Shown in pieces: positions 1-24,670 of a stretch of DNA of 35,539 nt. Positions within the stretch are counted from its first letter, which is position 1, and every line of letters begins with the position of its first letter. The translations under genes and the position numbers were made by a program. The stretch comes from an uncultured Thermodesulfobacteriota bacterium (GTDB lineage: Bacteria > Desulfobacterota > RBG-13-43-22), in assembly GCA_964609705.1 (NCBI GenBank), contig CAZSTT010000004.1, positions 13,183 to 48,721 on the forward strand. Reading direction: 5' to 3'. The notes beneath the pieces were generated by a model. The model worked only from the letters and a program-made list of their open reading frames with translations, made no database searches and was not told the DNA's origin.

Positions 1-1223
1 GAACGATAACTGCCCAGAAGGCCGGCTTTAAAATAATCCTTGGTCACCAGGAAACAGAGATGGACCGGAGAAAGCATCATCCCCATAAAGCCGAAGACAT
101 AAGCCAGGGCGGCATAGGAAAGAAAATTAAAAAGGGGAGTTGGGGGAAAGAGGGGGATGATCAAAGGGAAGGAAGTCCCCACAAATCCAATACCGATTCC
201 GGTAATGAGTCCGGAGAGAAAGGGCATAATGACAATGACCAGCAGCATGGGAATCCGGAAAGTCATCAATTCGGTCCTGATGTCGACCACGGCCCGGCTG
301 TCTTTCATAATGCCCTGGAAAATCATGATGGCCGCCACCAATAATAAAATGGAGAGGATGCTCCGGTCATAAACCGCCGCCGCCAACTGCCTGAGGGAAA
401 TCCGGTTGACCACACCGACCCAGATCAGGGATACCAGAAGACCGGGAAGAATAGAGATAACCCCGGGCAGACCGATCTTGACCCCGGCCCAATTCAGCAG
501 AAAGGTCAACCCTTCCAGGAAGAGGATGACCAGGACCACAATCAGAATGGGCATGATCTCCCAAAAAAAAGTTTTCAACTCTGAAGAGGAGAAGACTTTC
601 TTCGGTTGTAATGATTCCGACCGGATGGGTTTCAAAATGAAGACGACGCCGGCCAGAATCATGACCAGGGTCATGGGGATCATGACGGCTATAAACTGCC
701 AGGTGGCCACCTTCAGCAAGGCCACGGCCAGAACCACCGCCGGATAAAGGGGCCACCAATATTCCCAGATGTGCCGGAACCAATAATTGACCGCCGTTTG
801 CTGTTCGCCGGACAAGGCGCACTTGTTAAAAGTGGTTTCGACCATGGGCGCCGAAAAAAGCGCGCCTCCGGGCATGGGCAGGAGCCCGATTAAGGCCGGC
901 AGCACCGATCCGGCGGTGCGTTCATCGCCCGATAGCCCGGCAAAGCCCTCGACAATCCGGTCCATATGGCGGCTCTCTTTCATCAGGCGGCTGATGATCA
1001 GGATAGAACCGACAATCAGGAACAAGCTGATGGTCTGGAGTTGTGAGAGACTTTGGAGTGTGCTCCCGATCACCTCACCGGGAGCCAGTTTCATCCACAA
1101 ACCCAGCACCAGAGAACCGATAAGGAGGCAAAGACTCAACCCCAGGCGTAATCGGTTGAGAATGAGGATCAGGCCGAAGACGCCCAGTATTTTTACCAGG
1201 GCGGGAATGGAATAAAATATCAC
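1..1223 (-). CDS. DUF401 family integral membrane protein (3' end runs off the window)
   Basis: Missing from the ORF track because it has no stop in the window. Manual translation from GTG at 1223 (GTGA overlap with the stop of the upstream gene) gives MIFYSIPALVKILGVFGLILILNRLRLGLSLCLLIGSLVLGLWM, with internal IGLLPMPGGALFSAPMV and NYWFRHIWEYWWPLYP, which are DUF401 signature segments. Hydrophobic throughout. Confidence 0.8.
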   Translation of the reverse strand, partial: MIFYSIPALVKILGVFGLILILNRLRLGLSLCLLIGSLVLGLWMKLAPGEVIGSTLQSLSQLQTISLFLIVGSILIISRLMKESRHMDRIVEGFAGLSGDERTAGSVLPALIGLLPMPGGALFSAPMVETTFNKCALSGEQQTAVNYWFRHIWEYWWPLYPAVVLAVALLKVATWQFIAVMIPMTLVMILAGVVFILKPIRSESLQPKKVFSSSELKTFFWEIMPILIVVLVILFLEGLTFLLNWAGVKIGLPGVISILPGLLVSLIWVGVVNRISLRQLAAAVYDRSILSILLLVAAIMIFQGIMKDSRAVVDIRTELMTFRIPMLLVIVIMPFLSGLITGIGIGFVGTSFPLIIPLFPPTPLFNFLSYAALAYVFGFMGMMLSPVHLCFLVTKDYFKAGLLGSYR

Positions 1224-3157
1224 AATCGCCAGGCCGCCCGCGCCCCTTCTTCGACGGCCTCAAAAATCCGCCGGGGTTGGAAGGCATCGCCGATGACTGA
1301 AAAAGGAATTTTTAAAGACTCCAAGATCTCTTTTAACTCGTCCCTGGGCTTCAACCCCACGGCCAGAACCACCTGATCGATGGGAGACAGGGTCGAGGGC
1401 TCCCCTTTGGTTTCAATTTCAACACTCCCGTCGCCGATGGACTTTAAGACCGTGCCAAAGAGGAGACGGCATTTTTTTTCCTGAAGGCGCTGGTGCAGCA
1501 TATATCCGTGAGAGGTGATCTTCCGTACCGGTGACCGCTCCAGGATTTCAACCAAGGTCACTTCCTTTCCCTGGGCGCTGAGAAAATCAGCGGTTTCCAT
1601 CCCGATCAGGCCTCCGCCGACCACCAGAATGTGATTTTTAGGCGTAACCGTACCGCTCAGGATCTGCCAGGCATCGCAGACATTGGGTTTTTCAGACCCT
1701 GGGATATAGGGGATTATCTTTTCCCCACCGGTAGCCAGGATCACATAATCCGGGTTTTGATCCCTCAATAACTCTTCATTAACCCATGTGCCGCTTTTGA
1801 TGGTTACTCCGGTTTGTCTGACTTGATCGATCTGCCAATCGATCCATTCTCCGTAGATTTTTTTATAGGGCGGTATCCGGGCGTAACGGAGCTGGCCGCC
1901 CAGTTCCTTCTCCTGCTCGAAAAGGGTTACCTGGTGACCCAATCGGGCGGCTTCGAAGGCCGCGGTGAGACCTCCGGGGCCTGAGCCTACTACCAAGACC
2001 TTCTTCGGCTTTGCTGCCGGACCCTGGGGATAAATGGTTTCCTGGCCGGTCTCCGGATTGATGGAACAGCGGATATTGCCTTCCCCGAGTATCTCCCGTT
2101 CGATGCAGCCCTGGTTACAGGCGATACATTTTCGTATTTCCGCGGTTCGACCGGCCTTGGCTTTGATCAGAAAATCCGGGTCGGCCAGAAATTGACGTCC
2201 GAAGGCCACCAGGTCCGCATCCCCGCGACCGATCACCTCATCAGCCAGGGCCGGGTCACTAAACCGTCCGACCGCGATAACCGGTACCGAAACAACCTCT
2301 TTCATTTTTTTTGCCAGACCGACATTGAAACCCGGCTCATATTCGGCGGTGGCCTGGGTGATAGCTCCGGGGCTCCCGTGAGTGCCTATGGAAGCATGAA
2401 TGATATCGGCCCCGGCCCGGACCATATCGGGGAGGATGGTCTGCATATCCTCGATGGTGTAGCCCCCCCGGATGTATTCTTCTCCCGAGAGCCGAAGGGA
2501 AATGGGAAAATCCGGGCCGATGCAGCGCCGGACTTTTTCAATGACTTCGATAACAAATCGGGATCGTTCTTTCAGGGTGGCCCCGCCGTATTCGTCGGTC
2601 CGACGATTGGATATGGCCGATAGAAATTGGGTCAGCAGGTAGCCGTGAGCCCCATGGATCTCCACCGCATCGAAGCCGGCCTCCCGGGCCCGACCCGCGG
2701 CCGATCCGAAGGCCAGGATAACTTCTTGGATGTCTTCCAGAGTCATCTCCCGGGGCGTCTTTCGGAAGACGATACTTGGGACCGGCGAGGGCGCCACGGC
2801 CTTCCCTTGTTCCAGGAGAAAGCTACTCTCCCTGCCGGCATGATGGATCTGCATGGCGATCTTGGCCCCGGCCTCATGGGCCACGGCCACCAGTTTGGAA
2901 AGTCCCGGGATGAACCGGTCCTCATAGGCGCCCAACTGGTTCGGAGAGGCAATGCCTCCCGGGTGAGCCGCGGTTATTTCGGTGATGATCAACCCCGGCT
3001 GACCCTGGGCCCGGCGTTTCAGATAGGCCAGGTTTTCCGGGCTGACGGACCCGTCATCCCGGCCCAGGTTAGTCCCCATAGGGGGCATCACCACCCGGTT
3101 GGCCAGGGACATGGATTTAATGGTCAGGGGTGACAGAATATGGTTTAGTGGGCTCAT
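1220..3157 (-). CDS. OYE-family NADH:flavin oxidoreductase with [4Fe-4S] and FAD/NAD domains (FadH/BaiCD/Ncr-like architecture)
   Basis: TIM-barrel motifs NRVVMPPM, QIHHAGR, GFDAVEIHGAHGYLLTQFLS, NRRTDEYGG; Fe-S motif CIACNQGC-x12-C; two Rossmann motifs VVGSGPGG and VVGGGLIGME. Start chosen at ATG 3157 after RBS GAAGGAG. Confidence 0.9.
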   Translation of the reverse strand: MSPLNHILSPLTIKSMSLANRVVMPPMGTNLGRDDGSVSPENLAYLKRRAQGQPGLIITEITAAHPGGIASPNQLGAYEDRFIPGLSKLVAVAHEAGAKIAMQIHHAGRESSFLLEQGKAVAPSPVPSIVFRKTPREMTLEDIQEVILAFGSAAGRAREAGFDAVEIHGAHGYLLTQFLSAISNRRTDEYGGATLKERSRFVIEVIEKVRRCIGPDFPISLRLSGEEYIRGGYTIEDMQTILPDMVRAGADIIHASIGTHGSPGAITQATAEYEPGFNVGLAKKMKEVVSVPVIAVGRFSDPALADEVIGRGDADLVAFGRQFLADPDFLIKAKAGRTAEIRKCIACNQGCIEREILGEGNIRCSINPETGQETIYPQGPAAKPKKVLVVGSGPGGLTAAFEAARLGHQVTLFEQEKELGGQLRYARIPPYKKIYGEWIDWQIDQVRQTGVTIKSGTWVNEELLRDQNPDYVILATGGEKIIPYIPGSEKPNVCDAWQILSGTVTPKNHILVVGGGLIGMETADFLSAQGKEVTLVEILERSPVRKITSHGYMLHQRLQEKKCRLLFGTVLKSIGDGSVEIETKGEPSTLSPIDQVVLAVGLKPRDELKEILESLKIPFSVIGDAFQPRRIFEAVEEGARAAWRL

Positions 3158-3355
3158 CGTTATCTCCTTCAAAGAAAATTAGTTGTTAAAAGGTGATGGT
3201 CAGATAGAAAGGTTTTATCCTGCCATAAGATCCTGGAGGCCGTCAAACAGAAAAATAAAAACAAGGCGGAAATGGCCAATCAATATCCTGTTTAAATTTT
3301 ATTAACGCCTTCCTTTTGAACCTGACCGGCTGTCCGTTCAGGGGGTTCTTTTTGA

Positions 3356-4132
3356 TTAACAATGGGGGGCGGTGATATGGGTCCAGATATTTCCAACGGC
3401 CTCATAAGCCGGAGAATCACCGGGTAGTTCCAGTAGCGGTTTTCCCTCCAGATCAAATTGGGTGAGGCCGGGGTCTTCAGGGACGAACCCGAAGAGATCC
3501 AGACCGGTTTTTAAGATATGGGGCTGAAGTTGTTTTTCCTGGCCGTTGACGCGGTTTAACACCAGCCCTAACTTTTGATATTTAAATATTTTTTTATGGG
3601 AGGTGATGACGTCTTTTATGAGGGCTGCGGTTTGCAGTCCCCGATTGGAAATATCGGAGACGATCACCACCGTATCCACGCTTTTCATCACCTGGCGGTT
3701 GATCTGCTCCACTCCGGCCTCCCCGTCCATGATAACCACATCGTAATTTTCCGCCAGCATTTCGATCCCGCTTCTCAGGAAATCATTGACCGGACAATAA
3801 CAACCCAGGGATTCCGGCCGGCCCATAACCAGAAAGCTGAAACGGTCCGCTTCAATTAAGGCTTCAAACAGCATATATTCCAGAGAACGGGCCAGATTGG
3901 TTGTTTCCTTTTTTCCGGCCTTTCGCGCCTCCTGGATGATTCTTTCTCGAATATCGTTGACGGTTTTCTTGGGGGATAAGCCCAGCACCGAAGATAAATT
4001 CATGGTCGGGTCGGCATCAATAACCAATAAGCGTTGGTTATTAGTTTCCATAAGATACTTGGTCAGCAGGGCCACCAGGGCGGTTTTGCCGCTCCCCCCT
4101 TTTCCGCAAACCGCTACCAGTTTTTTCTCCAT
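3356..4132 (-). CDS. cooC: CooC/AcsF-family nickel-insertion ATPase (MinD-like)
   Basis: Deviant Walker A GKGGSGKT, IDADP, GRPESLGCYCPVN (CxC metal site) and DGEAGVEQINR. Start at ATG 4132 after a GAGGAAA RBS. Confidence 0.85.
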   Translation of the reverse strand: MEKKLVAVCGKGGSGKTALVALLTKYLMETNNQRLLVIDADPTMNLSSVLGLSPKKTVNDIRERIIQEARKAGKKETTNLARSLEYMLFEALIEADRFSFLVMGRPESLGCYCPVNDFLRSGIEMLAENYDVVIMDGEAGVEQINRQVMKSVDTVVIVSDISNRGLQTAALIKDVITSHKKIFKYQKLGLVLNRVNGQEKQLQPHILKTGLDLFGFVPEDPGLTQFDLEGKPLLELPGDSPAYEAVGNIWTHITAPHC

Positions 4133-4183
4133 GATTCTTTTTCCTCTTAGTCCGAGAATAGCGACCGTCGCTAAACGAGTTCT

Positions 4184-4234
4184 ATTTTCATGCTTGAAGG
4201 TGCCACGCCCCCAAAGGCGGGGCATGGCGGGTTA
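4184..4234. repeat. Dispersed palindromic intergenic element, copy A
   Basis: ATTTTCATGCTTGAAGGTGCCACGCCCCCAAAGGCGGGGCATGGCGGGTTA shares both ends with 28922-28994 and contains an internal GC hairpin. Confidence 0.65.
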
Positions 4235-5065
4235 CTCCAGAGCGTATCCCGGATTTTCTTCTTCTCGGACAGTAACCAACCGGTCACCTTTCCGGATCCG
4301 GATCACATCCCGGATGGTATCGCAAACAACCTGTTCGGAACAGGAATTACAATCCAGTTCCCGGGTGCATTCAAATGCTCCGTCTGAACCGACGGTATAG
4401 GTTTCCAGCTTTCTCTGTTTGATCCGGGCCTGTTCCACCAAATCATCCAATTCGTTGACATCATTTTTCGAACCGGTAACAAAGAAAATCTCACAGGCCG
4501 CTACCGGGTCGCATTGTTGTTTTATGGCGGTGATCAATCTTTCTCCCAGTCGCTTCAGCGAAAACCCGGAGCGGCAGGCTTCCTTGCTGACCCTGGCCCA
4601 TATCAGATTCGGGACGCTTCGGATCATATACCCGTCGGTTTGAGCGTAGCGGTGGGCTATCCGATCCATGGTTGAAGCCGTATTTTCAATTTCAAGGGTT
4701 GCTTGAGACGGGGCTTCGATTTCATTGGGACTTTTCAGCGCGGCGATGATGATTTGGGCAAAGGGCAACACAGGTTCCTGCGTTTCGGAGATTTCGGGAC
4801 CGACGAGATGGATGCACCTGTCCGAGACCAAATCCAAACGATGGGTGGCCAGTGTGGCGGAACAGGACCCCTGGGAAGGATGTCCCAACTCCACCTGGGT
4901 GTCTTCCTTCAGGACAATCCTTCCGTTTCTCCTTCCGGACTGATCGTCCGATAAAATAGGGAGAGTGATTCCCGGCGGAAGGAAGAAGCGGCGGGATTGT
5001 CCGTTCTTGGTTTTAGCCTCAAACCAGGCTTTTATTTCTAAGATAGCATCATCAAACAGGTCCAT
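4232..5065 (-). CDS. Stand-alone acetyl-CoA synthase (AcsB/CdhC) middle-domain homologue with C-terminal Cys cluster
   Basis: Segments VLKEDTQVELG, IHLVGPEI, LPFA and NLIWARVSKEACRSGFSLKRLGERLI correspond to the ACS middle domain (IRKGDMYVEMGG / IEVIGPDI / NINWLRVSKDAVAKGFRFKNYGEIL, recalled from Moorella AcsB). Ends with C-x5-C-x2-C-x5-C. Only 277 aa and has no Cys-Gly-Cys. Confidence 0.75.
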   Translation of the reverse strand: MDLFDDAILEIKAWFEAKTKNGQSRRFFLPPGITLPILSDDQSGRRNGRIVLKEDTQVELGHPSQGSCSATLATHRLDLVSDRCIHLVGPEISETQEPVLPFAQIIIAALKSPNEIEAPSQATLEIENTASTMDRIAHRYAQTDGYMIRSVPNLIWARVSKEACRSGFSLKRLGERLITAIKQQCDPVAACEIFFVTGSKNDVNELDDLVEQARIKQRKLETYTVGSDGAFECTRELDCNSCSEQVVCDTIRDVIRIRKGDRLVTVREEENPGYALE

Positions 5066-6285
5066 CAGGCACCGGCTTTATAAGGATAATAGCGCCGGAC
5101 CACGTCAAACTGGGCCAGTTGATGCCCTCCCAGCCAAAGTTGGATCTCCTTGACGTCCCGCCAGTATTTTTCAACATGATAGTCCCGGATATATCCATAG
5201 GAACCCATCAGTTCCATGAGCCGGCCGATGGTGGTGTTGGCCATATGGCAGGCATGGTTTTTGGCCGCGCTGGCATGGCTGATCATGGCCGGGGAGTGGA
5301 CTTCTCCAAATTGGTCGGGGTGACTCAGCATATAGGCCACCTGGAGATAATAGGCCCGGGCCGTCTCAATGCCGGTAATGGCATCGGCCAGGATACCGGC
5401 GGCAATAGAATGCTCCCGGATCGGTTTGCCTCCCACTTCCCGTTCTCCGGTATAGCGCAGGCATTCTTCAAAGGCCCCCCGGGCGCAGCCCACGGCCGCA
5501 GCGGCGCTGACCACCCTTCCGATAGAGACATTACGTTTCAGAATAATGGCATCTTCGCCGGCTCCGGCCGCCCGGTAGGACAACGGGACCCGGACATCGT
5601 CGAAAAAGATATCGCAATTGCGGTCCGACTGCAGACCGGCCTTGATTTCGAATTTGCCGAAGCTGAGGCCCTTGGCATTGTCGGGCACATAAATCAGGGC
5701 AATGCCCTCCTCTCCCTTTTCTGGAGCTGTTTGGCAGACCACGCAATAGAAAGAGGAGATACCGGCATTACTCGGGAATCGTTTGGCCCCGTTGATCACC
5801 CAGCTGTCTCCGTCTTGAACGGCACGGGTCTTAATGGTCCGTCCGTGCATCTCTGGCAGATTTTCCACATCGCAACCGCTGGCCGGTTCGGTCATGGCAA
5901 AGCAGGCAAAGGTGGGCTGTTTCTCCTGCTGGCGTTTCTGAAAGGCTTCAATGACTTGCCGGTTTCGGCCGTACTGGGCGCCGGCCATAGCCCAGCTGTT
6001 AATGCCGGCCACCAGTCCGATTCCGGCATCCCCCCGGGCAAATTCTTCTATAACAGCGCAAGCCATGGGAAGGGACGGACCTTCGACATCCGATCCTTCT
6101 TCGGGCAGGTTCACATTAAAGACCCCCAGGGCGGACATCTTGATCAGCAAATCGTTGATGAGCTTGTGTTCGGTATCGGCATCGAACCGGTCTCTAAGGG
6201 GCATGATCTCGGTTTCCACAAATTTGCGAACCACATCAACAATCATTGCCCCGCCTTCATCCACAAAAAGCGGAAAATATTTCAT
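5065..6285 (-). CDS. Acyl-CoA dehydrogenase family protein (non-canonical active site)
   Basis: FAMTEPASGCDV, WVINGAKRF, IFFDDVRVP and GSYGYIRDYHVEKYWRDVK motifs. Its stop overlaps the next start (TGATG). Confidence 0.9.
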   Translation of the reverse strand: MKYFPLFVDEGGAMIVDVVRKFVETEIMPLRDRFDADTEHKLINDLLIKMSALGVFNVNLPEEGSDVEGPSLPMACAVIEEFARGDAGIGLVAGINSWAMAGAQYGRNRQVIEAFQKRQQEKQPTFACFAMTEPASGCDVENLPEMHGRTIKTRAVQDGDSWVINGAKRFPSNAGISSFYCVVCQTAPEKGEEGIALIYVPDNAKGLSFGKFEIKAGLQSDRNCDIFFDDVRVPLSYRAAGAGEDAIILKRNVSIGRVVSAAAAVGCARGAFEECLRYTGEREVGGKPIREHSIAAGILADAITGIETARAYYLQVAYMLSHPDQFGEVHSPAMISHASAAKNHACHMANTTIGRLMELMGSYGYIRDYHVEKYWRDVKEIQLWLGGHQLAQFDVVRRYYPYKAGA

Positions 6286-6328: not shown

Positions 6329-7450
6329 CTACAACATCTCTAAAAAAGCCTGAATGCGGGTGCTCAACTGCCCGGATTTTACCGTGTTGTATTCACGTTC
6401 CAATTCCATCACCGGAATACTGGTATCCTGACGCAATCGATCGGCCAGCAACTTTCGACTGCCGGCAAAGTGATCGCAGAATTTAAGACGGGCAGAAACG
6501 ACTCCTTGCACGCCGTTTTGGTCAATGACCGTTTTTAAGATTCTATAGCTTTGCTCGGTGCCGTCCAGTACGGCCGGGCAGGGAAGGCGGGAGATATACC
6601 GCTGGGCAATGGCTTCCCATGGATCTTCGGCCGTATCTCCGATTAATCCCCCATAATGACGCAGTCCGAAACACAAGCCGTCAGCAACGATATGGGCCCC
6701 CCGGCTTTCAATAAATTCAATAAAATCGGGAGAATCACAGGCTCCTCCGATAATAAGCAGGCGGGGGACCTGATGATCCGGCAAGTCTCTTTTTTCGAGC
6801 TCCGGCAGAAGGGCCTCCAGCTTTTGGTTGAAGGTTTCCCGGGGTATGGTCATGCCGGTCAGGGCAATGTTCATAAATTCCAGGCCTGTCAATAGAGGTG
6901 GATCTTTTTTCCTCAGGTCATTTATCCGGTTCATGAGGCTGCGCGTTTTGTTGTAGGTCGAGATCGTTTCTCGTAAGTTATCCTCGGAGATTGAAACCTT
7001 AAAAGCCCGTTCCAGCTGCTCAGCCAATTTTATCATTTCCTGCATCAGCCATTCTTTTCCACCCGGACCCAGGGTATGGTTCACTCGAAAATAGTAAAAG
7101 AACTTAAGGAGGGATTTGTCCTCGATTTCACTGACCAGCCGGAGATGATGATCACAGGTATTGGCGGTTACCAGTCCGTCGAGAAACTCCAGTTGGCCGG
7201 TCAGGAGCGATTCCAGGACCGCCCGGGTATAAGAACAATTGATCCTATGCAGGTGGGCGTCGGCGTTTTTGGTGTTGGGCAGACCGGAAACGCGGATTCT
7301 CAGGGGCAGCAGGCCGGCCGCATGGACCATTTCTTCCGGAATACCGGAACACAGAAGGCCGAGGATACCTCCCCCTTTGGCCTTCCAGGCGAGGACTTCC
7401 GGGTTGGATAGGGATTGGGCCATGGCTTCAAAATATTCCAGATGTTCCAT
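6329..7450 (-). CDS. 2-hydroxyacyl-CoA dehydratase / class I aryl-CoA reductase beta-type subunit (HgdB/BcrC/BzdN-like), copy 2
   Basis: IPEEMVHAAGLLPLR; three cluster Cys in INCSY, NTCDH and KFCDH; DGLCFG; C-terminal GQLSTRIQAFLEML. Confidence 0.88.
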   Translation of the reverse strand: MEHLEYFEAMAQSLSNPEVLAWKAKGGGILGLLCSGIPEEMVHAAGLLPLRIRVSGLPNTKNADAHLHRINCSYTRAVLESLLTGQLEFLDGLVTANTCDHHLRLVSEIEDKSLLKFFYYFRVNHTLGPGGKEWLMQEMIKLAEQLERAFKVSISEDNLRETISTYNKTRSLMNRINDLRKKDPPLLTGLEFMNIALTGMTIPRETFNQKLEALLPELEKRDLPDHQVPRLLIIGGACDSPDFIEFIESRGAHIVADGLCFGLRHYGGLIGDTAEDPWEAIAQRYISRLPCPAVLDGTEQSYRILKTVIDQNGVQGVVSARLKFCDHFAGSRKLLADRLRQDTSIPVMELEREYNTVKSGQLSTRIQAFLEML

Positions 7451-7467
7451 CGGTGCCCTCCTTATTT

Positions 7468-8739
7468 CTACAGTGAAGTAAAAAACTCTTCAATCTGGTT
7501 TTTCAGGTTCTCGGCCGATACCACCCGGTCATCGTTATAATCCATTTCCAGGAAAAGGGCGGGGATACCCTCCTTTTGGAAAAAATGGCGGAGGATGCCG
7601 CCGGCGCCGCAAATGCTGTTGCAGCCGACGTGTTGGGTATAGATCACCGCGTTACAGCGATATTGATGATAAAGTTTCATAGTGTATTCGATCATTTTCC
7701 GGGAATCAAAGCGCATGAGCGACATGGTCATGTCCAGCCCCTGCCAGGCATAGCCCTCGAACATGGTTTCGTCGTTGCTGGTATCGATGGGGCGTAAAAT
7801 GGCTGATCCGGTCAGCATATTGGTGACTACGGACACTTTAAGTTCCTGTTCCATCCAGGAGAAGAATAATGGGTCGAAGGTCGGAGGAACATGACCCCAG
7901 ATCACCCGGTGTTTTTCTTCAATCGGATGGGGGATGCCCTCCTTCAAACGCCGCATGACCTCATGATGAAAAACCTGCAGGCTGTCTGTTGCTTTGGGAT
8001 CTCCGGCAGCGGCCAGAAACATCTCCCAGGGGAACCCCCTCACGGACGCAGGAACCGGCATCGGCGTGGTCGTATAAGTATCGAAAACATCCAGCATGAG
8101 TTCGTAGGCCCGGTTGGATTCTTCAATGATCTCCCGGAAGCGGTCCAAGTTAAATTTTTTACCGGTCATTTCTTCCAAAAAGGGGACCAGTTCCTTCCGA
8201 ATCTGTTGTCCGTACCAACGGGCCGATTCCCTTTCATAGGTGGTGGGAAGTTCCAGAAACAGGGCGGGTACGCCCAGAGCTTTTTGCATGATGGGATAGG
8301 CGATCCGGGTCCCGTCACAGGGACCGGAGCAGGTTACAAAAAAAGAATTTTTCGGAAATTCTCCGCTGAGAGCGGCTCCCACCAGAAATCGGTCGGTGGA
8401 ACAAACGTCAGAGGGCAGCCCGGCCGATTCGGCGGCATCGAGAAATTCATGAACCACCTGTTTTTGGCTGGCGGTGAACCGCACTGGAAAGGTTTCCAGG
8501 CAAAGGGGAATACAGTCAAAGGCATAAAATAACTGGGGGGTCAATCCAAATTCAAAAAGGGCGATGGTTTTTTCCGGATGATTCGCGGCCTCGGTCAAAT
8601 CTTCCAGGCGGGTGACCAGACCCTCCACCCGCATGGCCTGGAGTTTCATATCCGCATCATCCAGGGCTCGAAGAAATTCAAGAGCCGGCTTTCCGAATTC
8701 ATTGACCAGGCGCCGGGTTTTTTCAAAGGTTTTTCCCAT
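7468..8739 (-). CDS. 2-hydroxyacyl-CoA dehydratase / class I aryl-CoA reductase alpha-type subunit (HgdA/BcrB/BzdO-like), copy 2
   Basis: GLPSDVCS, GPCDG and HVGCNS cysteines; C-terminal GIPALFLEMDYNDDR...IEEFF. Start at ATG 8739 after an AAGGAG RBS. Confidence 0.85.
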   Translation of the reverse strand: MGKTFEKTRRLVNEFGKPALEFLRALDDADMKLQAMRVEGLVTRLEDLTEAANHPEKTIALFEFGLTPQLFYAFDCIPLCLETFPVRFTASQKQVVHEFLDAAESAGLPSDVCSTDRFLVGAALSGEFPKNSFFVTCSGPCDGTRIAYPIMQKALGVPALFLELPTTYERESARWYGQQIRKELVPFLEEMTGKKFNLDRFREIIEESNRAYELMLDVFDTYTTTPMPVPASVRGFPWEMFLAAAGDPKATDSLQVFHHEVMRRLKEGIPHPIEEKHRVIWGHVPPTFDPLFFSWMEQELKVSVVTNMLTGSAILRPIDTSNDETMFEGYAWQGLDMTMSLMRFDSRKMIEYTMKLYHQYRCNAVIYTQHVGCNSICGAGGILRHFFQKEGIPALFLEMDYNDDRVVSAENLKNQIEEFFTSL

Positions 8740-8813
8740 AAGCCCACTCCTTTCCAACCGACCAGGGGCCTACTCCAATGATAGGGTTAGGTCTTGAAGA
8801 GTCCGAAGAATGT

Positions 8814-9593
8814 TTATTTCGACCCTCTCTCTTCGGCCAAAAGGGCCGCGCCAAAGGCGGCTACAGCCCGGGGGTCCAGGTTGTATTCGACAAAGGATGT
8901 TCCGAGTTCCTTCTCAATATCACGAACGGCAATCTTGTTTTTAGCTAACCCGCCGACAATAGCCATGGGCTGGTCCAGGGTAACCCGTCTAACCACGGCG
9001 GCGACCTTGCCGGCGACGGACTGAGAAATCCCGGCAAAGATGTCCAGTCGATCTTTCCCCTCATTGACGTGGGTAATAACTTCGCTTTCGGCAAAAACCC
9101 CGCATTGGCTGGTAATCGGCAAGGCCTTGTTGGACGACAGGGCAGCCGTGCTCAATTCTTCAATCGGCATCTCCAGGGCCTGGGCCATGACTTCCAGAAA
9201 CTTACCGGTTCCCGCGGCACATTTTTCATTGGCAGCCGAAGCGGTGACCTTACCCGCACTATCCATATTAAAGGCCTTGATGCTGCTGCCGCCGGCATCG
9301 ATGGCGGTCCTGATTTTCGGGTTCAGCGTCCTTAATGCCCGGCTGAGGCAGACCAGCTCCGGGAGGTCTTTATCGGCAAAAGGGACCGCTTTTTTCCCGA
9401 AACCGGTCGATAAACAATAAGCGATCCGGTCCAGGGTTAAACCGGCTTTCTGCAAAGCGATATCCATGACGGCCAGGGCCGCTTTTTTGGGAAGACTGGT
9501 GTAGGCCAGTATTTCAGCCGCCAGGATGTTGCCGTTTTCAATAAGTACCGCCTTGGCGGATATGGTTCCCAAATCACATCCGGCATAAATCAA
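8814..9593 (-). CDS. ATP-dependent electron activase subunit (ASKHA; BzdP/BcrD/HgdC-like)
   Basis: GCDLGTISAKAV, STGFGK, ANEKCAAGTGKFLE, ITSQCGVFAESEV, VGGLAKN and AFGAAL. Confidence 0.9.
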   Translation of the reverse strand: MIYAGCDLGTISAKAVLIENGNILAAEILAYTSLPKKAALAVMDIALQKAGLTLDRIAYCLSTGFGKKAVPFADKDLPELVCLSRALRTLNPKIRTAIDAGGSSIKAFNMDSAGKVTASAANEKCAAGTGKFLEVMAQALEMPIEELSTAALSSNKALPITSQCGVFAESEVITHVNEGKDRLDIFAGISQSVAGKVAAVVRRVTLDQPMAIVGGLAKNKIAVRDIEKELGTSFVEYNLDPRAVAAFGAALLAEERGSK

Positions 9594-10402
9594 TGGGTTT
9601 CACCTCCTTCCGTCTTTCTTTTAAGTTTTCCGGATCGTTCTGCCGCGAACACGGCCGCTCCCAGGGCCCCGACAATTTGCGGGTCTTCGTTTAACGGCAC
9701 AAAGCGGATATCCAGCATCTTTTCCAGGTTTTTGACGACCCCGTTGTTTTTACAGACCCCGCCGGTAATGGTGATGCCCGGTTTAACACCCACCCGGCCT
9801 ACCAGCATTTTAACCCGTCTGGCCATGGATTCGTTGATTCCGGCGGCGATATCCGCCGGCTCTTTATCTTCCATCAGATAATGCATGATTTCCAACTCAG
9901 AAAATATGCTGCATTGACTGGTAATGGTAATCGTCTGACCGGCTTTTTCCGCCAGGGCGGCTAATTCGCTGAAATGAACCCCCAGATATTTAGACATCAG
10001 TTCCAGCGATCGTCCGGTACCGGCGGCACATTTATCATTCATCACAAAATCCTGAAGGACCCCATATTCATCCACTCGTATGACCTTGCAATCCTGACCG
10101 CCGATGTCGATAATGGTCCTAATACCGGAGTCCAGGAAATGAGCCCCCTTGCCGTGACAGGAAATTTCACTGATATTGTGATTGGCGAAGGGTATGGATT
10201 CACGCCCGTATCCAGTGGAGACGGTATAGTCGATATCGTCATAGGTAAGCCGGGTTGAGGCCAGGGCTTTGTCCATTACCTCCCGGGCGGATTGTTCCGC
10301 CTTGGGTCTGACCCGAATAATTTCTGAGGCTACTATTTTTCCATCGTTCAAAATAACCGCTTCGGCCGTCAATGAACCTACATCACATCCGGCGACAATC
10401 AT
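9590..10402 (-). CDS. ATP-dependent electron activase subunit (ASKHA; BzdQ/BcrA/HgdC-like)
   Basis: GCDVGSLT, STGYGR, EISCHGKGA, DIGGQDCK, MNDKCAAGTGR, ITSQCSIF, TGGVCKN and PQIVGALGAA. Confidence 0.9.
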   Translation of the reverse strand: MIVAGCDVGSLTAEAVILNDGKIVASEIIRVRPKAEQSAREVMDKALASTRLTYDDIDYTVSTGYGRESIPFANHNISEISCHGKGAHFLDSGIRTIIDIGGQDCKVIRVDEYGVLQDFVMNDKCAAGTGRSLELMSKYLGVHFSELAALAEKAGQTITITSQCSIFSELEIMHYLMEDKEPADIAAGINESMARRVKMLVGRVGVKPGITITGGVCKNNGVVKNLEKMLDIRFVPLNEDPQIVGALGAAVFAAERSGKLKRKTEGGETH

Positions 10403-10453
10403 TAAATTTTATCTCCCTTTCCTTGGTTCAAAAAATGGGTTATTAACCCTTAA

Positions 10454-10527
10454 GGGCAATAGGCAATAGGCTACAGGTAAAAAAGAATAAAAAAAACAGT
10501 AAAACCTATTGCCCTTGCCGATTGCCC
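10454..10527. repeat. Inverted heptamer (GGCAATA/TATTGCC) arms around an A-rich loop
   Basis: GGGCAATAGGCAATAGGCTACAGG at 10454-10477 and CCTATTGCCCTTGCCGATTGCCC at 10505-10527. Confidence 0.6.
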
Positions 10528-10602
10528 AGAGGTAGACTTGATCGGTTTCAGAGATCAAAAGACAAGGGGATCAATCCCATTTTCTTATTACCAAGTTGAA
10601 CT

Positions 10603-11973
10603 TTAAACGATCGTTTCAAAGAATTCTTCCAGCTGCTCCTTGATAACCTCCATGGGGGTGGTTCGGGAATCCCAACCGTCGGCTTCCATTCTAAGAATAG
10701 GAACACCGAGTTCCTTTTGAATCCGGTCGGCTACTATCCGATAAATACCCCAAACCTGCTTGCAGGCCGTATGGCCGGTAAAAACCACACAGTCGGCCTT
10801 ATATTTTTCCACATAATACAGCAGGTCCGAGATCCATCCCCCGTGGAAATTATTACTTCCTTTCAACTGCCGGGTCATGGGCAGATTCATATTGATGGCC
10901 GCCAGTCCCGAAAGCATGGTATCCATATTGGCGGTGTCGATATAGGGCACATGATCGTTGAAAATAAGCATATCCATAATATAGGAAACGCCCATCTCTT
11001 CCTGAAACCATCCGTAAAAAGAGGTGTCGAAATAAAGACCGGTATACATAAACATAAAGCGGATACGTTCTTCCGGTAATACATGTTTGCCTTTTTTAAA
11101 GCGGTCCAATGATCGGTCATAAGCCATTTGATAAAAATCCACGGCATCCTGGGTTCCCAGTTTGGTCAGTTTTGTGCCTAAGTGGTTCATATTATAATAA
11201 TTTGGAACCGGGTTGGGCACATGACGTTTTAAGTCGCTGATCTCCATGGCCAGTTCATTGGCTTTATTGGACAAGGAACAGACTTCGCGGAGACGGTCTT
11301 CGTCGAGTTTGTTTCCTGAAACATCTTCCAGGATTTTCACGACTTCTTTAAAGCCCTGTTCATAATATTTGAAGGACCTTTTGTCATGGTAATAAGGCAC
11401 ATCAACAAAAAGAGTGGGAATCTCAAATTTTTCTCCCATGTATTCAAAAACCTTCGTGTTCGGATCGCAACCGCCCAAAGCGCCGTTGACTAATAAATCG
11501 GGTTTTCCCAGAACGCCGGCTTCAAGCATGCCGACCACCGCCCGTTGGGCGGAACACATAGTCTCCGGCAGTCCCCGTTCCACGGCCAGATCCAGGTAGG
11601 GGTGAATGCCCTCCTCCAGGGTCATGGTCATGGTATCCAATATTTCGACACCTACGGGGATCATATCCAGGGCGTAAAATATCTCCGGAGAAAAATTAAA
11701 AGGGATAAAGACCACTTTTTTGCCCAGGTCTTTGGCAGTCAGAACGCTTTCCCAATAATTGCCCATGCCCCGATTGAAAACATTGGAAATCATCCGTGTG
11801 TCGGGGTCCTTGGCCATGGTGATAAACATCGATCGCCGGCGTTCGGGTAAACTGTCCAGCAATAATTGGACTTCCGGGGATTCGAAATTTAAATCCTCCG
11901 GGATAACAGAACCCATCCTGAAGGCCTCCACCATTCTTTCCAGTGCCTTTGGTTGTGTCGTCATGGTCATCAC
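10603..11973 (-). CDS. 2-hydroxyacyl-CoA dehydratase / class I aryl-CoA reductase alpha-type subunit (HgdA/BcrB/BzdO-like), copy 1
   Basis: GLPETMCS, GGCDPNTK and HTACKQ cysteines; C-terminal LGVPILRMEADGWDSR...LEEFFE. Confidence 0.88.
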   Translation of the reverse strand: MMTMTTQPKALERMVEAFRMGSVIPEDLNFESPEVQLLLDSLPERRRSMFITMAKDPDTRMISNVFNRGMGNYWESVLTAKDLGKKVVFIPFNFSPEIFYALDMIPVGVEILDTMTMTLEEGIHPYLDLAVERGLPETMCSAQRAVVGMLEAGVLGKPDLLVNGALGGCDPNTKVFEYMGEKFEIPTLFVDVPYYHDKRSFKYYEQGFKEVVKILEDVSGNKLDEDRLREVCSLSNKANELAMEISDLKRHVPNPVPNYYNMNHLGTKLTKLGTQDAVDFYQMAYDRSLDRFKKGKHVLPEERIRFMFMYTGLYFDTSFYGWFQEEMGVSYIMDMLIFNDHVPYIDTANMDTMLSGLAAINMNLPMTRQLKGSNNFHGGWISDLLYYVEKYKADCVVFTGHTACKQVWGIYRIVADRIQKELGVPILRMEADGWDSRTTPMEVIKEQLEEFFETIV

Positions 11974-13097
11974 CCGATCCTTTCCAGAAAAGCCTGCACT
12001 CTGGTCCTTATCCGCCCGGCATCGGCCAGAGGACCGTATTGTCTTTCCAATTCAATGACAGGGATATTATCTTTCTCCAGGTTGGTTTTTAAAAGGGCAT
12101 TATCCGTCCCGTGCTGATCGCAGAACTTGATGTATTCCAAGATGGCCCCATCGGCCCGGCTTCGCTTGATCTGATCCCTGACAAACTCAAGTCTTCGTTT
12201 AAATTCTCCGGCCATTCTGGGACAGGGTTCATGATGGTAATATCTTCGGCACAGGGCCTCAAAAGGCTCCTCAGTTTCATCGGTCAAATTCCAGATGCCC
12301 CTGGCGCCGAAACACAAGGCGTCGGAAACGACAATCGCCCCGAGACTTTCCACATTCTCGATGAACTCCGGATCATCCAGTTCGCTTCCGGCTACGACCA
12401 GCCTGGTTTTGTTGTTTTTTTTCTGAGGCTCGGTGCCGGTCGTCGTTAGAATTTCATTCAAAAGCCGGTTGAAGCTTTCTTTTGGCATCAGATGGGAGGC
12501 GATAGTCAGAGTCAGGGCTTCAGCGCCGGTAAAGGGGGGATTTTCTCCGGTCCTCAGGTCATAGACTTTTCTAAGCAGCCGGCGAGTCTCATTATAAACG
12601 GCTACGGCCTTTTTTAAGTTTTCCGAAGTCACCTTAACGCTAAACCGGGTTTCAAAGGCGGATTTTAATTTTGCAACTTCCTCCTTAAACCATTGATAGC
12701 CGGCTTCGGAAAGGCGATGAGGCACTGGCAGGATATACATAAAGGGAAGGGCCGCGGTTTCATGGGTCGCCCAGTTTTCATAGCACCTCCGGATGTGATC
12801 GCAGCCATTGACAAATATCGCCCCGTCCAAAAAGTCAAATTTCGAATCCAGGGCCGCTTCCAGGCAGCAGCGGGCAAAACTGCAATTGACCCGGGATAAA
12901 TAAGAATCCGCCTTGGACGAATCGGTAACTCCCCGGCCGGTAATCCGGTAGGGCAAAATATCCACCGCATACAGAAGTTCTTCCGGAAGGTAGGTGCAGG
13001 CATAGCCCATGACCTTTTTCCCCTGCGACCTCCAATCCCGGATATAAGGATTATCCAGGGATCTGCAAATTTTTGACAATTCTTCCATGGCCTTCAC
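11970..13097 (-). CDS. 2-hydroxyacyl-CoA dehydratase / class I aryl-CoA reductase beta-type subunit (HgdB/BcrC/BzdN-like), copy 1
   Basis: GYACTYLPEEL, VNCSF, NGCDHIRR, DALCFG, KFCDQH and RIRTRVQAFLE. GTG start at 13097 after an AAGGAGG RBS. Confidence 0.88.
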   Translation of the reverse strand: MKAMEELSKICRSLDNPYIRDWRSQGKKVMGYACTYLPEELLYAVDILPYRITGRGVTDSSKADSYLSRVNCSFARCCLEAALDSKFDFLDGAIFVNGCDHIRRCYENWATHETAALPFMYILPVPHRLSEAGYQWFKEEVAKLKSAFETRFSVKVTSENLKKAVAVYNETRRLLRKVYDLRTGENPPFTGAEALTLTIASHLMPKESFNRLLNEILTTTGTEPQKKNNKTRLVVAGSELDDPEFIENVESLGAIVVSDALCFGARGIWNLTDETEEPFEALCRRYYHHEPCPRMAGEFKRRLEFVRDQIKRSRADGAILEYIKFCDQHGTDNALLKTNLEKDNIPVIELERQYGPLADAGRIRTRVQAFLERIG

Positions 13098-13381
13098 GGT
13101 AATACCTCCTTTTGAAAAGATTGAAGCAGCCCGGCCTCCCGGCATTCAGGGCAGGCCCAGAGTGATAAATCCCATGAATGTTTTCTGACAACACCTCCCC
13201 TGCGGTAATTAAACATTATCAGGGAATTGTCCATTATTTCCAGGGGCAAATACTCTTTGGGGGTACCGATTAAAGTCGAATCGGGATGGGATGGGAGGAA
13301 TCGGGAGAAGATTGGGTTTCGGGTTGAAAAAGACTCGGGGGAACGGCAACCCGCAGTAATTTTTCCGCGTCGGACTTTCAT
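13094..13381 (-). CDS. Small hypothetical protein (95 aa) heading the operon
   Basis: GGAGG lies 8 nt before ATG 13381, and the stop overlaps the GTG of the next gene (GTGA). Contains a CPEC motif. No family recognised. Confidence 0.4.
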   Translation of the reverse strand: MKVRRGKITAGCRSPESFSTRNPIFSRFLPSHPDSTLIGTPKEYLPLEIMDNSLIMFNYRRGGVVRKHSWDLSLWACPECREAGLLQSFQKEVLP

Positions 13382-13605: not shown

Positions 13606-14445
13606 CTATCTCTTGATTTTCCTGGAGGGGGAATGCAAATAGTTTTCATCCCGCATACCTTCAACCACCGGAAGGCCATCCATCTCCGGCGACTGGAAGT
13701 TGAAAAGCACTTCCAGGATAATCATGACGATCCGGTAGGTCACCCCCCAAAGCACTTCCTGGCCTTCTTCATCCTCATGTAGGAATCCGGGAAAATCCTG
13801 AAGGGCTTCCTCTCCATCCACATAAGATTCGAAGCGCATTCGAAAGCGGACATATTTTTCAGGGTTCAATAAATCCTTGATCGGGATGGTGACCACCTTT
13901 TCCACTTCCCGGTTGAGGAAGAATCGTTTCTGATGCCGGACCCAGACCACCATGGGGTAAAGGAATCTTCTGAAGGATTGCAGGGACTGGGGAGGCATGG
14001 GACCGAGAAACTGGGTTCGGAAGGGATTGAGACGCATTTCCTCGGCGCATTCCCTCAGGCCGGTGGCCAGTAGAAGGGCCAGGCGATCGGCTTCCTTTCT
14101 TCTCTGGGTCTTCCATTGCCTCCAGTAAGGCCAGCGGCCCAGGGGGAAAAAGGGCCATCCCAGAAATTTAGCCGCCAGGGAGTCGATATGATGAATTCCT
14201 CCCCCCGGGAAGCAGAGGTCCCCGGCCTGCCTCACCCACTTCGATCGTTTATTGAAGACGAAGCAGAGTTCTTTTTCCTTCCCCGATCCTTTAAGACATT
14301 CACTGAAAAGACAAAGGACCACGGAAGAACCGGCCGAATTGTATAACTGATCCGAATAAAGGCAGGCGTCCCGGTTCCACTTCTCCAGGGTTTCGGTAAC
14401 CTGGTTTACAAATTGTTTGGGGTCCTTGGTTAACAGAGCGCTCAT
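13606..14445 (-). CDS. Nudix hydrolase, CoA pyrophosphatase-like
   Basis: KRS...AGDLCFPGG, ATGLRECAEEM, EVEKVVTIPI and LWGVTYRI are CoAse-type motifs. Confidence 0.8.
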   Translation of the reverse strand: MSALLTKDPKQFVNQVTETLEKWNRDACLYSDQLYNSAGSSVVLCLFSECLKGSGKEKELCFVFNKRSKWVRQAGDLCFPGGGIHHIDSLAAKFLGWPFFPLGRWPYWRQWKTQRRKEADRLALLLATGLRECAEEMRLNPFRTQFLGPMPPQSLQSFRRFLYPMVVWVRHQKRFFLNREVEKVVTIPIKDLLNPEKYVRFRMRFESYVDGEEALQDFPGFLHEDEEGQEVLWGVTYRIVMIILEVLFNFQSPEMDGLPVVEGMRDENYLHSPSRKIKR

Positions 14446-14541
14446 TTTTCCATTTTCTATTGTGATTTTTTTAAACCTGTAATATCTTTTATCAAATATC
14501 GTTTGGTTATGCCAATTTTTTCGACTGAAAGGAAGCGGAAG

Positions 14542-15537
14542 ATGAAACCAGAAGAATGGAACCCTGGAAATATTTTAGGTCTTTCCGGTAATTATTGGGC
14601 GGCCTGTGCTCTTCAGGCCGGGGTCAAATTGGGGGTTTTCAGCCACCTCGGCAACCAGAGCCTTAGCGGTGAGGAAATCGCAGGGCGACTTAAGGGAGAT
14701 TCCCGGGGGGTCACCACCCTGCTTAATGCCTTGACGGCCATGAATCTTTTAACCAAGCAGGAAGGACTTTATGCCAACACCCCCTTCAGTTCCTCCTTCT
14801 TATCCAGGGAATCCCCTCAATATCTTGGCTACATGATCATGCATCATCATCATCTGATGCCCTCCTGGGCGAAGCTGGATGAGGCGGTTATCAGCGGCCG
14901 GCCGATTCGGGGCCGGGCCTCTTTTGAGGACGAGACGGTTCGGGAAAGCTTTCTGATGGGGATGTTCAATATGGCGATGATGCTGGCCCCGCACCTGGCC
15001 TCGGTGATTGATCTTTCCGGGAAAAAGCATCTGCTTGACCTGGGCGGCGGTCCCGGGACCTATGCCATTCATTTCTGTATGAAAAATCCCGGGCTCAAAG
15101 CCTCGGTCTATGATCTCAAAACCACCCGGCCTTTTGCCGAAAAGACCATCGCCCGATTCGGACTGAACGAGAGAATCGTTTTTCAGGACGGCAATTATGT
15201 GCAGGAAGAAATCCGGGGGACCTTCGATGCGGCCTGGCTGTCTCAGATCCTTCACGGCGAGGGCCCGGAGGAGGCTCAGCGGATTATTCAAAAAGCGGTC
15301 TCGGTTCTTGAACCGGGAGGACAAATTTTCGTCCACGAATTCCTGTTAAACAAGACGATGGACGGCCCTCTGCTTCCGGCCCTTTTTTCTTTGAACATGC
15401 TCCTGGGCACGGATCACGGCCAGTCCTATTCGGAGCAGCAGGTCATGGATATGCTGGCTCAGGCCGGGGCTAAGGAAATCCGCCGCCTGCCTCTGCAGAC
15501 CCCCAACGATTCCGGGGTGATTGTGGGGACGGTTTAG
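14542..15537 (+). CDS. SAM-dependent O-methyltransferase (Methyltransf_2 with N-terminal dimerisation HTH)
   Basis: LLDLGGGPGTY SAM motif, FDAAWLSQILH, LEPGGQIFVHEF and FSLNMLLGT. ATG 14542 follows an AAGGAAG RBS. Confidence 0.85.
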   Translation: MKPEEWNPGNILGLSGNYWAACALQAGVKLGVFSHLGNQSLSGEEIAGRLKGDSRGVTTLLNALTAMNLLTKQEGLYANTPFSSSFLSRESPQYLGYMIMHHHHLMPSWAKLDEAVISGRPIRGRASFEDETVRESFLMGMFNMAMMLAPHLASVIDLSGKKHLLDLGGGPGTYAIHFCMKNPGLKASVYDLKTTRPFAEKTIARFGLNERIVFQDGNYVQEEIRGTFDAAWLSQILHGEGPEEAQRIIQKAVSVLEPGGQIFVHEFLLNKTMDGPLLPALFSLNMLLGTDHGQSYSEQQVMDMLAQAGAKEIRRLPLQTPNDSGVIVGTV

Positions 15538-15548
15538 GGGACCGGCCG

Positions 15549-15989
15549 TTATAAAGGGACGGCTTCCTGGAGATACCATTCGATGCGCGACAGGGTCTTG
15601 ATCAGGATGTTTTTCATCTGGGGCCAGCGCAGCGGAGGAAGTTCCAGGATAAAGCTGGCGCATTCCCCGGGGACCAGTTTCCCGGCCAGGAAACCCACCA
15701 GGATAATCACCCCGAAGATGATCAAGGCCCAGGCAATGAAGATCCAGGCCGGGAATCCGGCCAGCATGCCGAAAATGACCGCCAATTGGGCCGAGCAAGG
15801 GACCCCCAAAGCCAACAGCAGGGTGACGATGATTTTATCCCTCCGGGTCTCTAATATTCTGGTGGTCATGGTGGCCATGGTGTCACATCCCAGGCCCAGG
15901 ATCATGGGTAACACGGCTTTGCCGTTAAGCCCCATAATATTGAAAATCCGGTTGCTCATTACCGCCAGTCTGGGTAATTAACCGGAGTT
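15549..15989 (-). pseudogene. feoB: feoB internal fragment (relic)
   Basis: Reads NSG*LPRLAVMSNRIFNIMGLNGKAVLPMILGLGC...GVPCSAQL...FILELPPLRWP...EAVPL*. This matches the FeoB DSGYLPR / gate / PCSA / ELPP regions, with Tyr replaced by TAA at 15978-15980. The GTPase domain and the C-terminus are absent. Confidence 0.8.
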
Positions 15990-20725: not shown

Positions 20726-20734
20726 GTGACCAAC

Positions 20735-21151
20735 ATGGCTAATTATATTGCGGTCGTTCATAAAGATCGAAAGAGTGATTTCGGGATATCCTTTCCTGAT
20801 TTTCCGGGTTGTGTAACCGCAGGAAAAACAATCGATGAAGCCAAGGATATGGCCCACGAGGCCCTTTCTTTCCATATAAAAGGTATGATTAAAGATGGTG
20901 AGAATATACCAGCTCCATCAAAACTTGAAGACATCATGGATGATCCTGACTATTCAGATTCCGCCGCGATCCTCATCGTTTCTGTGACTGAGACCAAACC
21001 TCGATCCGTTCGGGTAAACATAACTTTACCGGAAGATACGTTGCGTAAAATTGATAAGGCTGCCCAAAAAAAGGGTATGTCTCGATCTTCTTACCTGGTT
21101 CATGCTGCTCAAAATGCTATCTCGTCTATTCAAAACGATCATTCATTATAA
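20735..21151 (+). CDS. hicB: HicB antitoxin with C-terminal ribbon-helix-helix domain
   Basis: FGISFPDFPGCVTAGKTIDEA...EAL, and RHH segment VRVNITLPEDTLRKIDKAA...SRSSYL. Confidence 0.92.
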   Translation: MANYIAVVHKDRKSDFGISFPDFPGCVTAGKTIDEAKDMAHEALSFHIKGMIKDGENIPAPSKLEDIMDDPDYSDSAAILIVSVTETKPRSVRVNITLPEDTLRKIDKAAQKKGMSRSSYLVHAAQNAISSIQNDHSL

Positions 21152-21159
21152 AAACTTCT

Positions 21160-24549: not shown

Positions 24550-24570
24550 TTTTTAATCCGAAAAAAACAG

Positions 24571-24655: not shown

Positions 24656-24670
24656 AACAGGTTGCTGCCA

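Follow-up and report, generated by a model that had tools for sequence, protein, structure and literature searches.

A stand-alone acetyl-CoA synthase middle domain paired with a CooC-type ATPase in operons for benzoyl-CoA-reductase-like enzymes

The DNA analysed here is a stretch of 35,539 nt from an uncultured Thermodesulfobacteriota bacterium (contig CAZSTT010000004.1 of assembly GCA_964609705.1). This whole stretch is called the window, and coordinates refer to it unless a contig or locus is named. Its minus strand encodes a small homologue of acetyl-CoA synthase (ACS), here called mini-ACS, followed by a CooC-family ATPase. The mini-ACS/CooC pair turns out to be a widespread, undescribed companion of ATP-driven enzymes resembling benzoyl-CoA reductase (BCR), and not a part of the CO-fixing machinery. 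The features of the two genes are listed below.

4232..5065, minus strand: mini-ACS gene, 277 aa (ACS A2 domain and Cys metal loop); open reading frame (ORF) translation, Pfam CdhC, 353-cluster family
4391..4975, minus strand: ACS middle (A2) domain fold, residues 31-225; VIA-align and Foldseek
4598..4600, minus strand: Trp156 codon, counterpart of Trp405 of Clostridium autoethanogenum ACS; phmmer alignment to 6YTT
4322..4369, minus strand: Cys loop C233-x5-C239-x2-C242-x5-C248 (CTRELDCNSCSEQVVC); translation, family counts, AcsB alignment
3356..4132, minus strand: CooC-family ATPase gene, 258 aa from Met32 (frame open to 4225); best PDB match CooC1
4082..4105, minus strand: deviant Walker A motif GKGGSGKT of the CooC-like ATPase; invariant in 17/17 aligned partners
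3794..3805, minus strand: predicted metal-binding motif GCYC of the CooC-like ATPase; GC[YF]C invariant in 17/17, aligned with the CYC of CooC1

The mini-ACS protein, its ATPase and their family

The mini-ACS protein begins with MDLFDD, an N-terminus that is kept in its relatives. Residues 47-200 matched Pfam CdhC (PF03598) with an E-value of 2.4e-13 and 50.7 bits (cut-off 24). Because PF03598 was the sole Pfam family found at E<=0.01, the protein lacks the ACS C-terminal (A3) domain, PF19436. An AlphaFold2 model built with 72 relatives as input had a pLDDT of 88.8. When this model was searched against the PDB with Foldseek, a comparison with ACS structures that had been proposed in an earlier sequence-only reading of the window (the original prediction), all 23 matches at E<=1e-3 were ACS chains (E 1e-11). 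VIA-align placed mini-ACS residues 33-224 on ACS residues about 316-495, the whole A2 domain, with a Z score of 20.1 and an rmsd of 2.1 Å over 174 residues. The mini-ACS family profile matched the AcsB encoded in the same genome with an E-value of 3e-27, and the two proteins were 25% identical by BLASTP. The Pfam, Foldseek and VIA-align results uphold the original prediction that the 277-aa protein follows the AcsB/CdhC middle domain: mini-ACS is the A2 domain of ACS followed by a short Cys loop.

The tail of mini-ACS reads FECTRELDCNSCSEQVVC, and the protein stops 29 residues beyond C248. No Cys-Gly-Cys was present anywhere in its 277 residues; the genome's own AcsB has TCGCCEC downstream of the part aligned with mini-ACS. 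In the family HMM and BLASTP alignments, C233, C239 and C248 aligned with the YSC, LC and HVC cysteines that open the AcsB A-cluster region, respectively, and C242 stood opposite a Phe, without an ACS counterpart. The fourth cubane Cys falls past the end of the homology and is absent from mini-ACS. We take the cubane cysteines of the A-cluster to be 506, 509, 518 and 528 in Moorella thermoacetica numbering. A re-made Cys site and a tail without the Cys-Gly-Cys distal-Ni loop had both been predicted, and the translation and the AcsB alignment agree with this. The further statement that a canonical A-cluster is impossible from this chain alone also stands, the fourth cubane Cys, Cys-Gly-Cys and the rest of A3 all being absent.

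Among 72 diverse mini-ACS members, C239, C242 and C248 were present in 72/72 and C233 in 61/72. The CX2CX5C motif was found in 99 of 100 loci, the sole exception being interrupted by a contig end. The three-Cys form accounted for 80 of the 100 loci and the window was among the 19 with an extra upstream Cys (four-Cys form), a count that is biased by the seeding of the metagenome scan with the three-Cys subfamily. Since the extra upstream Cys occurred in only 19/100 loci and CX2CX5C in 99/100, the universal mini-ACS site is, as judged from the sequences, one of three cysteines and not four. The four-Cys tail originally described is therefore true of the window protein, but only three of its cysteines are universal. 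The Cys loop is likely, but not certainly, homologous to the cubane ligand region of the A-cluster, because posterior support for the tail alignment was low and model confidence was lowest in this part.

The consulted sections of a preprint on C. autoethanogenum ACS (bioRxiv 10.1101/2024.08.05.606187) place acetyl-CoA mainly on A2, with its adenine stacked on Trp405, and describe Arg383 and His386 as close to the A-cluster. In the phmmer alignment to 6YTT, Trp405, Arg407 and Arg383 corresponded to W156, R158 and R135 of mini-ACS, respectively; W156 was present in 72/72 members and R158 in 71/72. The residues invariant in the 72 members were G61, G89, G145, W156, C239, C242 and C248, and E59, L60, P63, M147, R158 and G167 were near-invariant. 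A role with CoA or a CoA ester fits mini-ACS because the CoA-stacking Trp of ACS is invariant, and the protein is predicted to bind one of these.

For the CooC-like ATPase, the best PDB match was CooC1 (3KJE, E 3e-14), with the CYC motifs aligned, and GKGGxGKT, DADP and GC[YF]C were invariant in 17/17 aligned partner ATPases. The true start of this gene is most likely Met32, because the start at 4132 is preceded by an AGAGGA Shine-Dalgarno site and the 31 codons ahead of it are unrelated to those in the 87%-identical copy of locus L001. This start gives a spacer of 99 nt from the mini-ACS gene. The original prediction of a following cooC with an intact GCYC was correct for the ATPase and the motif, but the start had to be moved to Met32 (258 aa).

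The pairing of the two genes was obligate. A CooC-like gene was located directly 3' of mini-ACS (its start falling between -200 and +400 nt relative to where mini-ACS ends) in 58/58 metagenome loci with at least 600 nt of downstream sequence, and it was present in 18/20 genome loci, as expected from the earlier proposal that mini-ACS has its own CooC-type ATPase. The pair persisted in loci L003, L007, L011, L012, L037, L043 and L054, which have no reductase genes nearby. The CooC-like protein of the window was at most 39% identical to the products of the genome's other four CooC-like genes. A complex prediction with two CooC-like chains and mini-ACS gave a median score of 0.44, compared with 0.00 for the best control, and was graded as weak support on a scale whose mark was reached by 116/157 solved complexes and 2/215 mismatches, scores of 0.60 or below comprising only 18 of the 157 solved complexes and both mismatches. 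Agreement between the prediction runs was 64% of contacts or more, and the pLDDT of the partner did not fall below 73.

The mini-ACS family is old and stand-alone. At E<=1e-3, 139 clusters at 90% identity matched mini-ACS; at 50% identity, the full scan gave 353 clusters, of which 196 reached E<=1e-10. The members were nearly all 240-280 aa long and matched through the end of the Cys loop. The genome loci belonged to Deltaproteobacteria/Desulfobacterales, Thermodesulfobacteriota, Poribacteria, Abyssobacteria, Chloroflexota and Actinomycetota. Within the phylum, 25 of 301 sampled genomes carried mini-ACS, with 36 copies and a maximum of three per genome, and within the genus it was found in 2/8 genomes.

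We were also able to show that mini-ACS is independent of carbon monoxide dehydrogenase (CODH) and ACS. As originally noted, there was no CODH or ACS gene in the window by Pfam scan. No gene for CODH, the corrinoid iron-sulfur protein (CoFeSP) or ACS adjoined the pair in the 100 loci, a result resting on Pfam scans of 94 neighbours, as the locus queries did not include CODH and CoFeSP. A search of the rest of the genome for cooS, acsB and a separate ACS C-terminal gene, as had been suggested, found CODH and a full acsB on contig C58 (genome 93% complete; AcsB about 737-746 aa) and no separate A3 gene, the single PF19436 domain lying inside the 746-codon acsB frame. Of the 25 holders of mini-ACS, 8 (completeness 88-100%) had no other match to the A2 profile, and ACS-type matches were about equally common in holders (17/25) and in all sampled genomes (about 196/301). 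Dependence on the Wood-Ljungdahl pathway had been suggested by a smaller check, in which 5/5 other genomes with the pair had a full ACS; it was overruled by the 8/25 holders without one.

Operon context and the reductase-like enzyme

The pair lies in a tightly packed gene row on the minus strand of the window, running from 13145 down to 1220. The other genes of this row are as follows.

11970-13145, minus strand: BzdN-like HGD-D subunit, 391 aa; match to BzdN (8S02_B), E 2.3e-53
10603-11973, minus strand: O-like HGD-D subunit, 456 aa, completing the first pair (10603..13145); HGD-D
9590-10402 and 8814-9593 (listed second to first by size), minus strand: two ATPase subunits of the BcrAD/BadFG type, 270 aa (9590-10402) and 259 aa (8814-9593); Pfam BcrAD_BadFG with E 9e-42 (259 aa) and 2e-56 (270 aa), TIGR00241 above cut-off
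7468-8757 and 6329-7450, minus strand: second HGD-D pair, O-like (429 aa) and N-like (373 aa); Pfam HGD-D E 9e-59 (429 aa) and 1e-83 (373 aa)
5065..6285, minus strand: acyl-CoA dehydrogenase (ACAD); Pfam ACAD domains
1220..3172, minus strand: Fe-S flavoenzyme of the old yellow enzyme (OYE)/FadH type, 650 aa, last gene on the strand after the pair; Pfam Oxidored_FMN and Pyr_redox_2

The conserved partner of the pair, which was overlooked in the original prediction, is the neighbouring BCR-like enzyme. An HGD-D or BcrAD gene was present near the pair in 39/43 metagenome loci with enough flanking sequence and in 15/20 genome loci, and a BcrAD gene was located immediately upstream of mini-ACS in 51/61 loci. 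The usual gene order was HGD-D, HGD-D, BcrAD, BcrAD, mini-ACS, CooC-like; the mini-ACS/CooC pair was followed by another HGD-D pair and one BcrAD gene in 13 of the 80 metagenome loci. In the window, the two N-like/O-like HGD-D pairs at 6329-13145 share a single pair of BcrAD ATPases.

According to the consulted parts of PMC11971306, the [8Fe-9S] double-cubane cluster of BzdN is bound by Cys36/73/100/263/293/327. The 391-aa subunit has a Cys at all six of these positions when aligned to BzdN. BzdO-type catalytic subunits have a three-Cys [4Fe-4S]-OH2 site and act on an aryl-CoA. The two O-like subunits of the window matched BzdO weakly (E 1.7e-4 and 8.8e-8), with DCCP and HadB matching about as well, and the 429-aa O-like subunit matched MbdO with E 4e-9 and BzdO with E 9e-8. 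Because the row resembled an aryl-CoA reductase cluster, its identity with the naphthalene thn operon was considered; it was dropped, as the gene list of that operon in Table 1 of PMC12016498 contains no CdhC-like or CooC-like gene.

The ACAD had as its nearest NCBIfam model cyclohexane-1-carbonyl-CoA dehydrogenase, with E 2.9e-52, below the cut-off of that model. Its stop codon overlaps the mini-ACS start by one base (TGATG), which confirms the coupling originally described for the window, but the link was not conserved: neither the ACAD nor the OYE-type gene is kept next to the pair in relatives. On contig C68 (L114:3324-5270, 7804-8556), a second CooC-like paralogue (38-39% identical) is located 2.5 kb from a second OYE/FadH-type flavoenzyme, which is 39% identical to that of the window; two opposite-strand genes without a Pfam match lie in between, and there is no mini-ACS beside this paralogue.

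Several other genes were observed around the pair or in the window. In four related loci, a LarE sulfur transferase gene (TIGR00268, E about 1e-104) is located directly 3' of the CooC-like gene (L004:11688-12515, L005:8342-9163, L006:2118-2939 and L012:12088-12906), followed by a GAF histidine kinase and then a sigma-54 regulator. A homologue of the LarA-type nickel-pincer racemase lies near the pair at L015:13026-14345. LarE was considered as a functional link to the pair and rejected: it was found in none of the 80 metagenome loci and was taken as lineage-specific synteny. Genes of the aldehyde:ferredoxin oxidoreductase (AFOR) family of tungsten enzymes stand beside the pair in six loci (L007:7196-9160, L012:7265-9229, L068, L076, L077 and L107). 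In L007 and L012 no BCR-like genes are near, and genes for tungstate or molybdate transport and moaC are found downstream in L007.

Just upstream of the operon in the window, 13606-14445 (minus strand) encodes a 279-aa protein with no Pfam match and a below-cut-off match to CoA pyrophosphatase (Nudix; E 3e-7). A plant-type O-methyltransferase (Methyltransf_2 with dimerisation domain) is encoded near the module both in the window, at 14503-15537 (plus strand), and at L011:790-1815. The 136-aa ORF at 15549-15959 (minus strand) has only the Gate and C-terminal parts of FeoB and may represent part of a broken gene for a ferrous iron transporter. At 20726-27427, a gene for a HicB-like antitoxin adjoins an AddAB-type helicase-nuclease pair (1129 aa, UvrD and PD-(D/E)XK; 918 aa, PD-(D/E)XK).

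Predicted function and alternative explanations

The original view of mini-ACS as a repurposed module and not an ACS enzyme is borne out by the A2 domain and the re-made Cys site. Together, the mini-ACS and ATPase genes would make up a self-contained module. We favour, with a probability of about 0.5, the reading that mini-ACS is a CoA-binding metal protein which is loaded by its own CooC-type ATPase and serves the neighbouring class I BCR-like enzyme as an accessory or auxiliary subunit. Mini-ACS would retain the CoA-binding A2 domain of ACS, and its loop of three to four cysteines would descend from the first cubane ligands of the A-cluster. AcsF, a CooC relative, reportedly inserts nickel into ACS, a finding attributed to Gregg et al. 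2016. In parallel with the action of AcsF on ACS, the CooC-family ATPase dimer would carry a metal at its CxC interface site, and ATP hydrolysis by the dimer would load or maintain the metal centre of mini-ACS. This centre would most likely be a [4Fe-4S] cluster in which one position is open or exchangeable, perhaps with a Ni or Zn ion in addition; a mononuclear site is a further candidate. Loaded mini-ACS would then bind CoA or an acyl-CoA and, as an accessory or auxiliary subunit, be dedicated to the adjoining ATP-driven class I BCR-like enzyme, with no synthesis of acetyl-CoA. Service to one particular reductase fits the presence of several mini-ACS copies in a genome.

Several observations weigh against this assignment. 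The three-Cys form of 80/100 loci means that a classical four-Cys cubane is not universal. Model confidence is lowest in the Cys tail (pLDDT 57-81), which lies outside the VIA-align structural alignment to ACS and is aligned to AcsB by the family profile with low posterior support. H138, which corresponds to the His386 proposed as catalytic in ACS, is a His in 16/72 members only, and the complex prediction does not rise above its weak grade. No reductase genes were found near the pair in 5/20 genome loci and 4/43 metagenome loci. A second BCR-like cluster with two HGD-D and two BcrAD genes (contig C37:11956-16147) has neither mini-ACS nor a CooC-like gene, and Azoarcus BzdNO is described in the consulted parts of PMC11971306 as produced with its clusters with no such helper. 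Because BzdNO was obtained without the helper and the C37 cluster lacks the pair, the pair is not a general requirement of this enzyme class.

A bolder form of the favoured reading would be a cut-down A-cluster, in which an Fe-S cubane and a Ni ion inserted by CooC on the bridging-type Cys239/Cys242 perform nickel-thioester chemistry on the CoA esters of the reductase; we regard it as quite improbable. The chemistries involved may include acyl transfer, thioester exchange, or decarbonylation of alicyclic or aryl acyl-CoA. If true, biology would have a second use for organometallic chemistry of the ACS type, beyond the Wood-Ljungdahl pathway.

The same genes can be read in other ways. Mini-ACS could be a [4Fe-4S] electron carrier that supplies low-potential electrons to the BcrAD ATPase module, taking the place of the ferredoxin that other BCR operons encode; the CooC-like protein would then be either an Fe-S carrier of the Mrp/NBP35 kind or an ATP-coupled reductase like NifH. 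No ferredoxin gene is present in the window operon, and the N47 thn operon includes ThnF in its gene list (PMC12016498, Table 1). A Cys loop descended from cubane ligands would suit such a carrier, as would the membership of the CooC-like protein in the P-loop class of NifH, with weak NifH-family matches (E 7e-8). However, an electron carrier would leave the whole A2 domain and its invariant CoA-stacking Trp (72/72) superfluous, and the closest relative, L001, has a Fer4 protein besides the pair. Mrp/NBP35 carriers use a CxxC motif, whereas the CxC motif of the ATPase is that of the Ni/Zn-binding site of CooC1, its best PDB match; we consider the carrier unlikely. A maturation role is doubtful to a like degree. 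The CooC-like protein, with mini-ACS as scaffold or adaptor, would build or repair an HGD-D cluster such as the [8Fe-9S] double cubane, as NifH does in nitrogenase P-cluster formation. The position of the pair directly behind the reductase genes in 51/61 loci, the six double-cubane cysteines of the 391-aa subunit, and the exchangeable position left by a three-Cys site would all agree with this; but a scaffold leaves the conserved CoA site unaccounted for, some loci have the pair and no reductase genes (L007 and L012, where it stands beside AFOR genes, are examples), and BzdNO and DCCP gain their double cubanes without such factors according to the consulted parts of PMC11971306.

The two remaining explanations keep mini-ACS close to ACS itself. 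Half of a split ACS-like enzyme, as the original prediction had offered, would make or cleave acetyl-CoA together with an A3 domain from another gene or with CODH/ACS. Homology to ACS and the presence of a full ACS in the window genome and in 5/5 other tested pair-bearing genomes are in its favour, but we reject it as very improbable because the only A3 domain of the genome lies inside acsB on C58 and 8/25 holders have no other ACS-type match. ACS-type matches are, moreover, about as common overall as in holders, and the Pfam scans of 94 neighbours showed no CODH, CoFeSP or ACS gene by the pair in the 100 loci (with queries lacking CODH and CoFeSP). A recent truncation or pseudogene of acsB, for which homology alone speaks, is hardly conceivable: mini-ACS is only 25% identical to the genome's own AcsB, its residues are conserved along the whole length, and it belongs to a stand-alone family of 139 clusters at 90% identity and 353 at 50%, nearly all of 240-280 aa.

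To our knowledge, CO2 fixation and acetate cleavage are the only settings in which ACS and its A-cluster have been described. In the operons studied here, for ATP-driven enzymes of the 'biological Birch reduction' type, the half of ACS that binds CoA has been recruited across at least six phyla, together with what is left of the metal site and an ATPase of the maturase type. If the pair is needed for activity, it would account for the difficulty of heterologous reductase production and would add a new cofactor-handling step to anaerobic aromatic and alicyclic degradation. If nickel is involved, mini-ACS proteins would form a new nickel-protein class. In genomes, the module can serve as an easy marker of a large branch of the BCR-I/HAD/DCCP family that has yet to be characterised.

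Relation to known systems

No description of the mini-ACS/CooC-like pair was found in CC-licensed PMC papers and bioRxiv preprints, searched without supplements, and the literature search yielded no canonical bzd or bcr cluster with a CdhC-like or CooC-like gene. The window operon resembles class I BCR of the Bzd type (BzdNOPQ; 8S02) and the BCR-I/HAD/DCCP family in its BzdN-like subunit, its O-like subunits and its two BcrAD-type ATPases, but its O-like subunits are remote from BzdO.

Compared with ACS (AcsB, CdhC; PDB 1OAO, 3GIT, 6YTT and 9C0S), mini-ACS has the complete A2 fold, the CoA-stacking Trp and the Arg close to it, three cysteines that align with cubane ligands one to three, and a pairing with a CooC-family ATPase, as AcsF is paired with ACS. 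Unlike ACS, it has no A1 domain and only the first roughly 25 residues of A3, lacks the fourth cubane Cys and the Cys-Gly-Cys Ni ligands, carries the new C242, and is encoded in BCR-like operons with no genomic link to CODH or CoFeSP.

The partner ATPase differs from the Ni-insertion ATPases CooC and AcsF (CooC1, 3KJE) in that it is a distinct paralogue which is not encoded with CODH/ACS. It is like them in its deviant Walker A motif, DADP and aligned CxC motif, and its partner protein, as for AcsF, is an ACS homologue.

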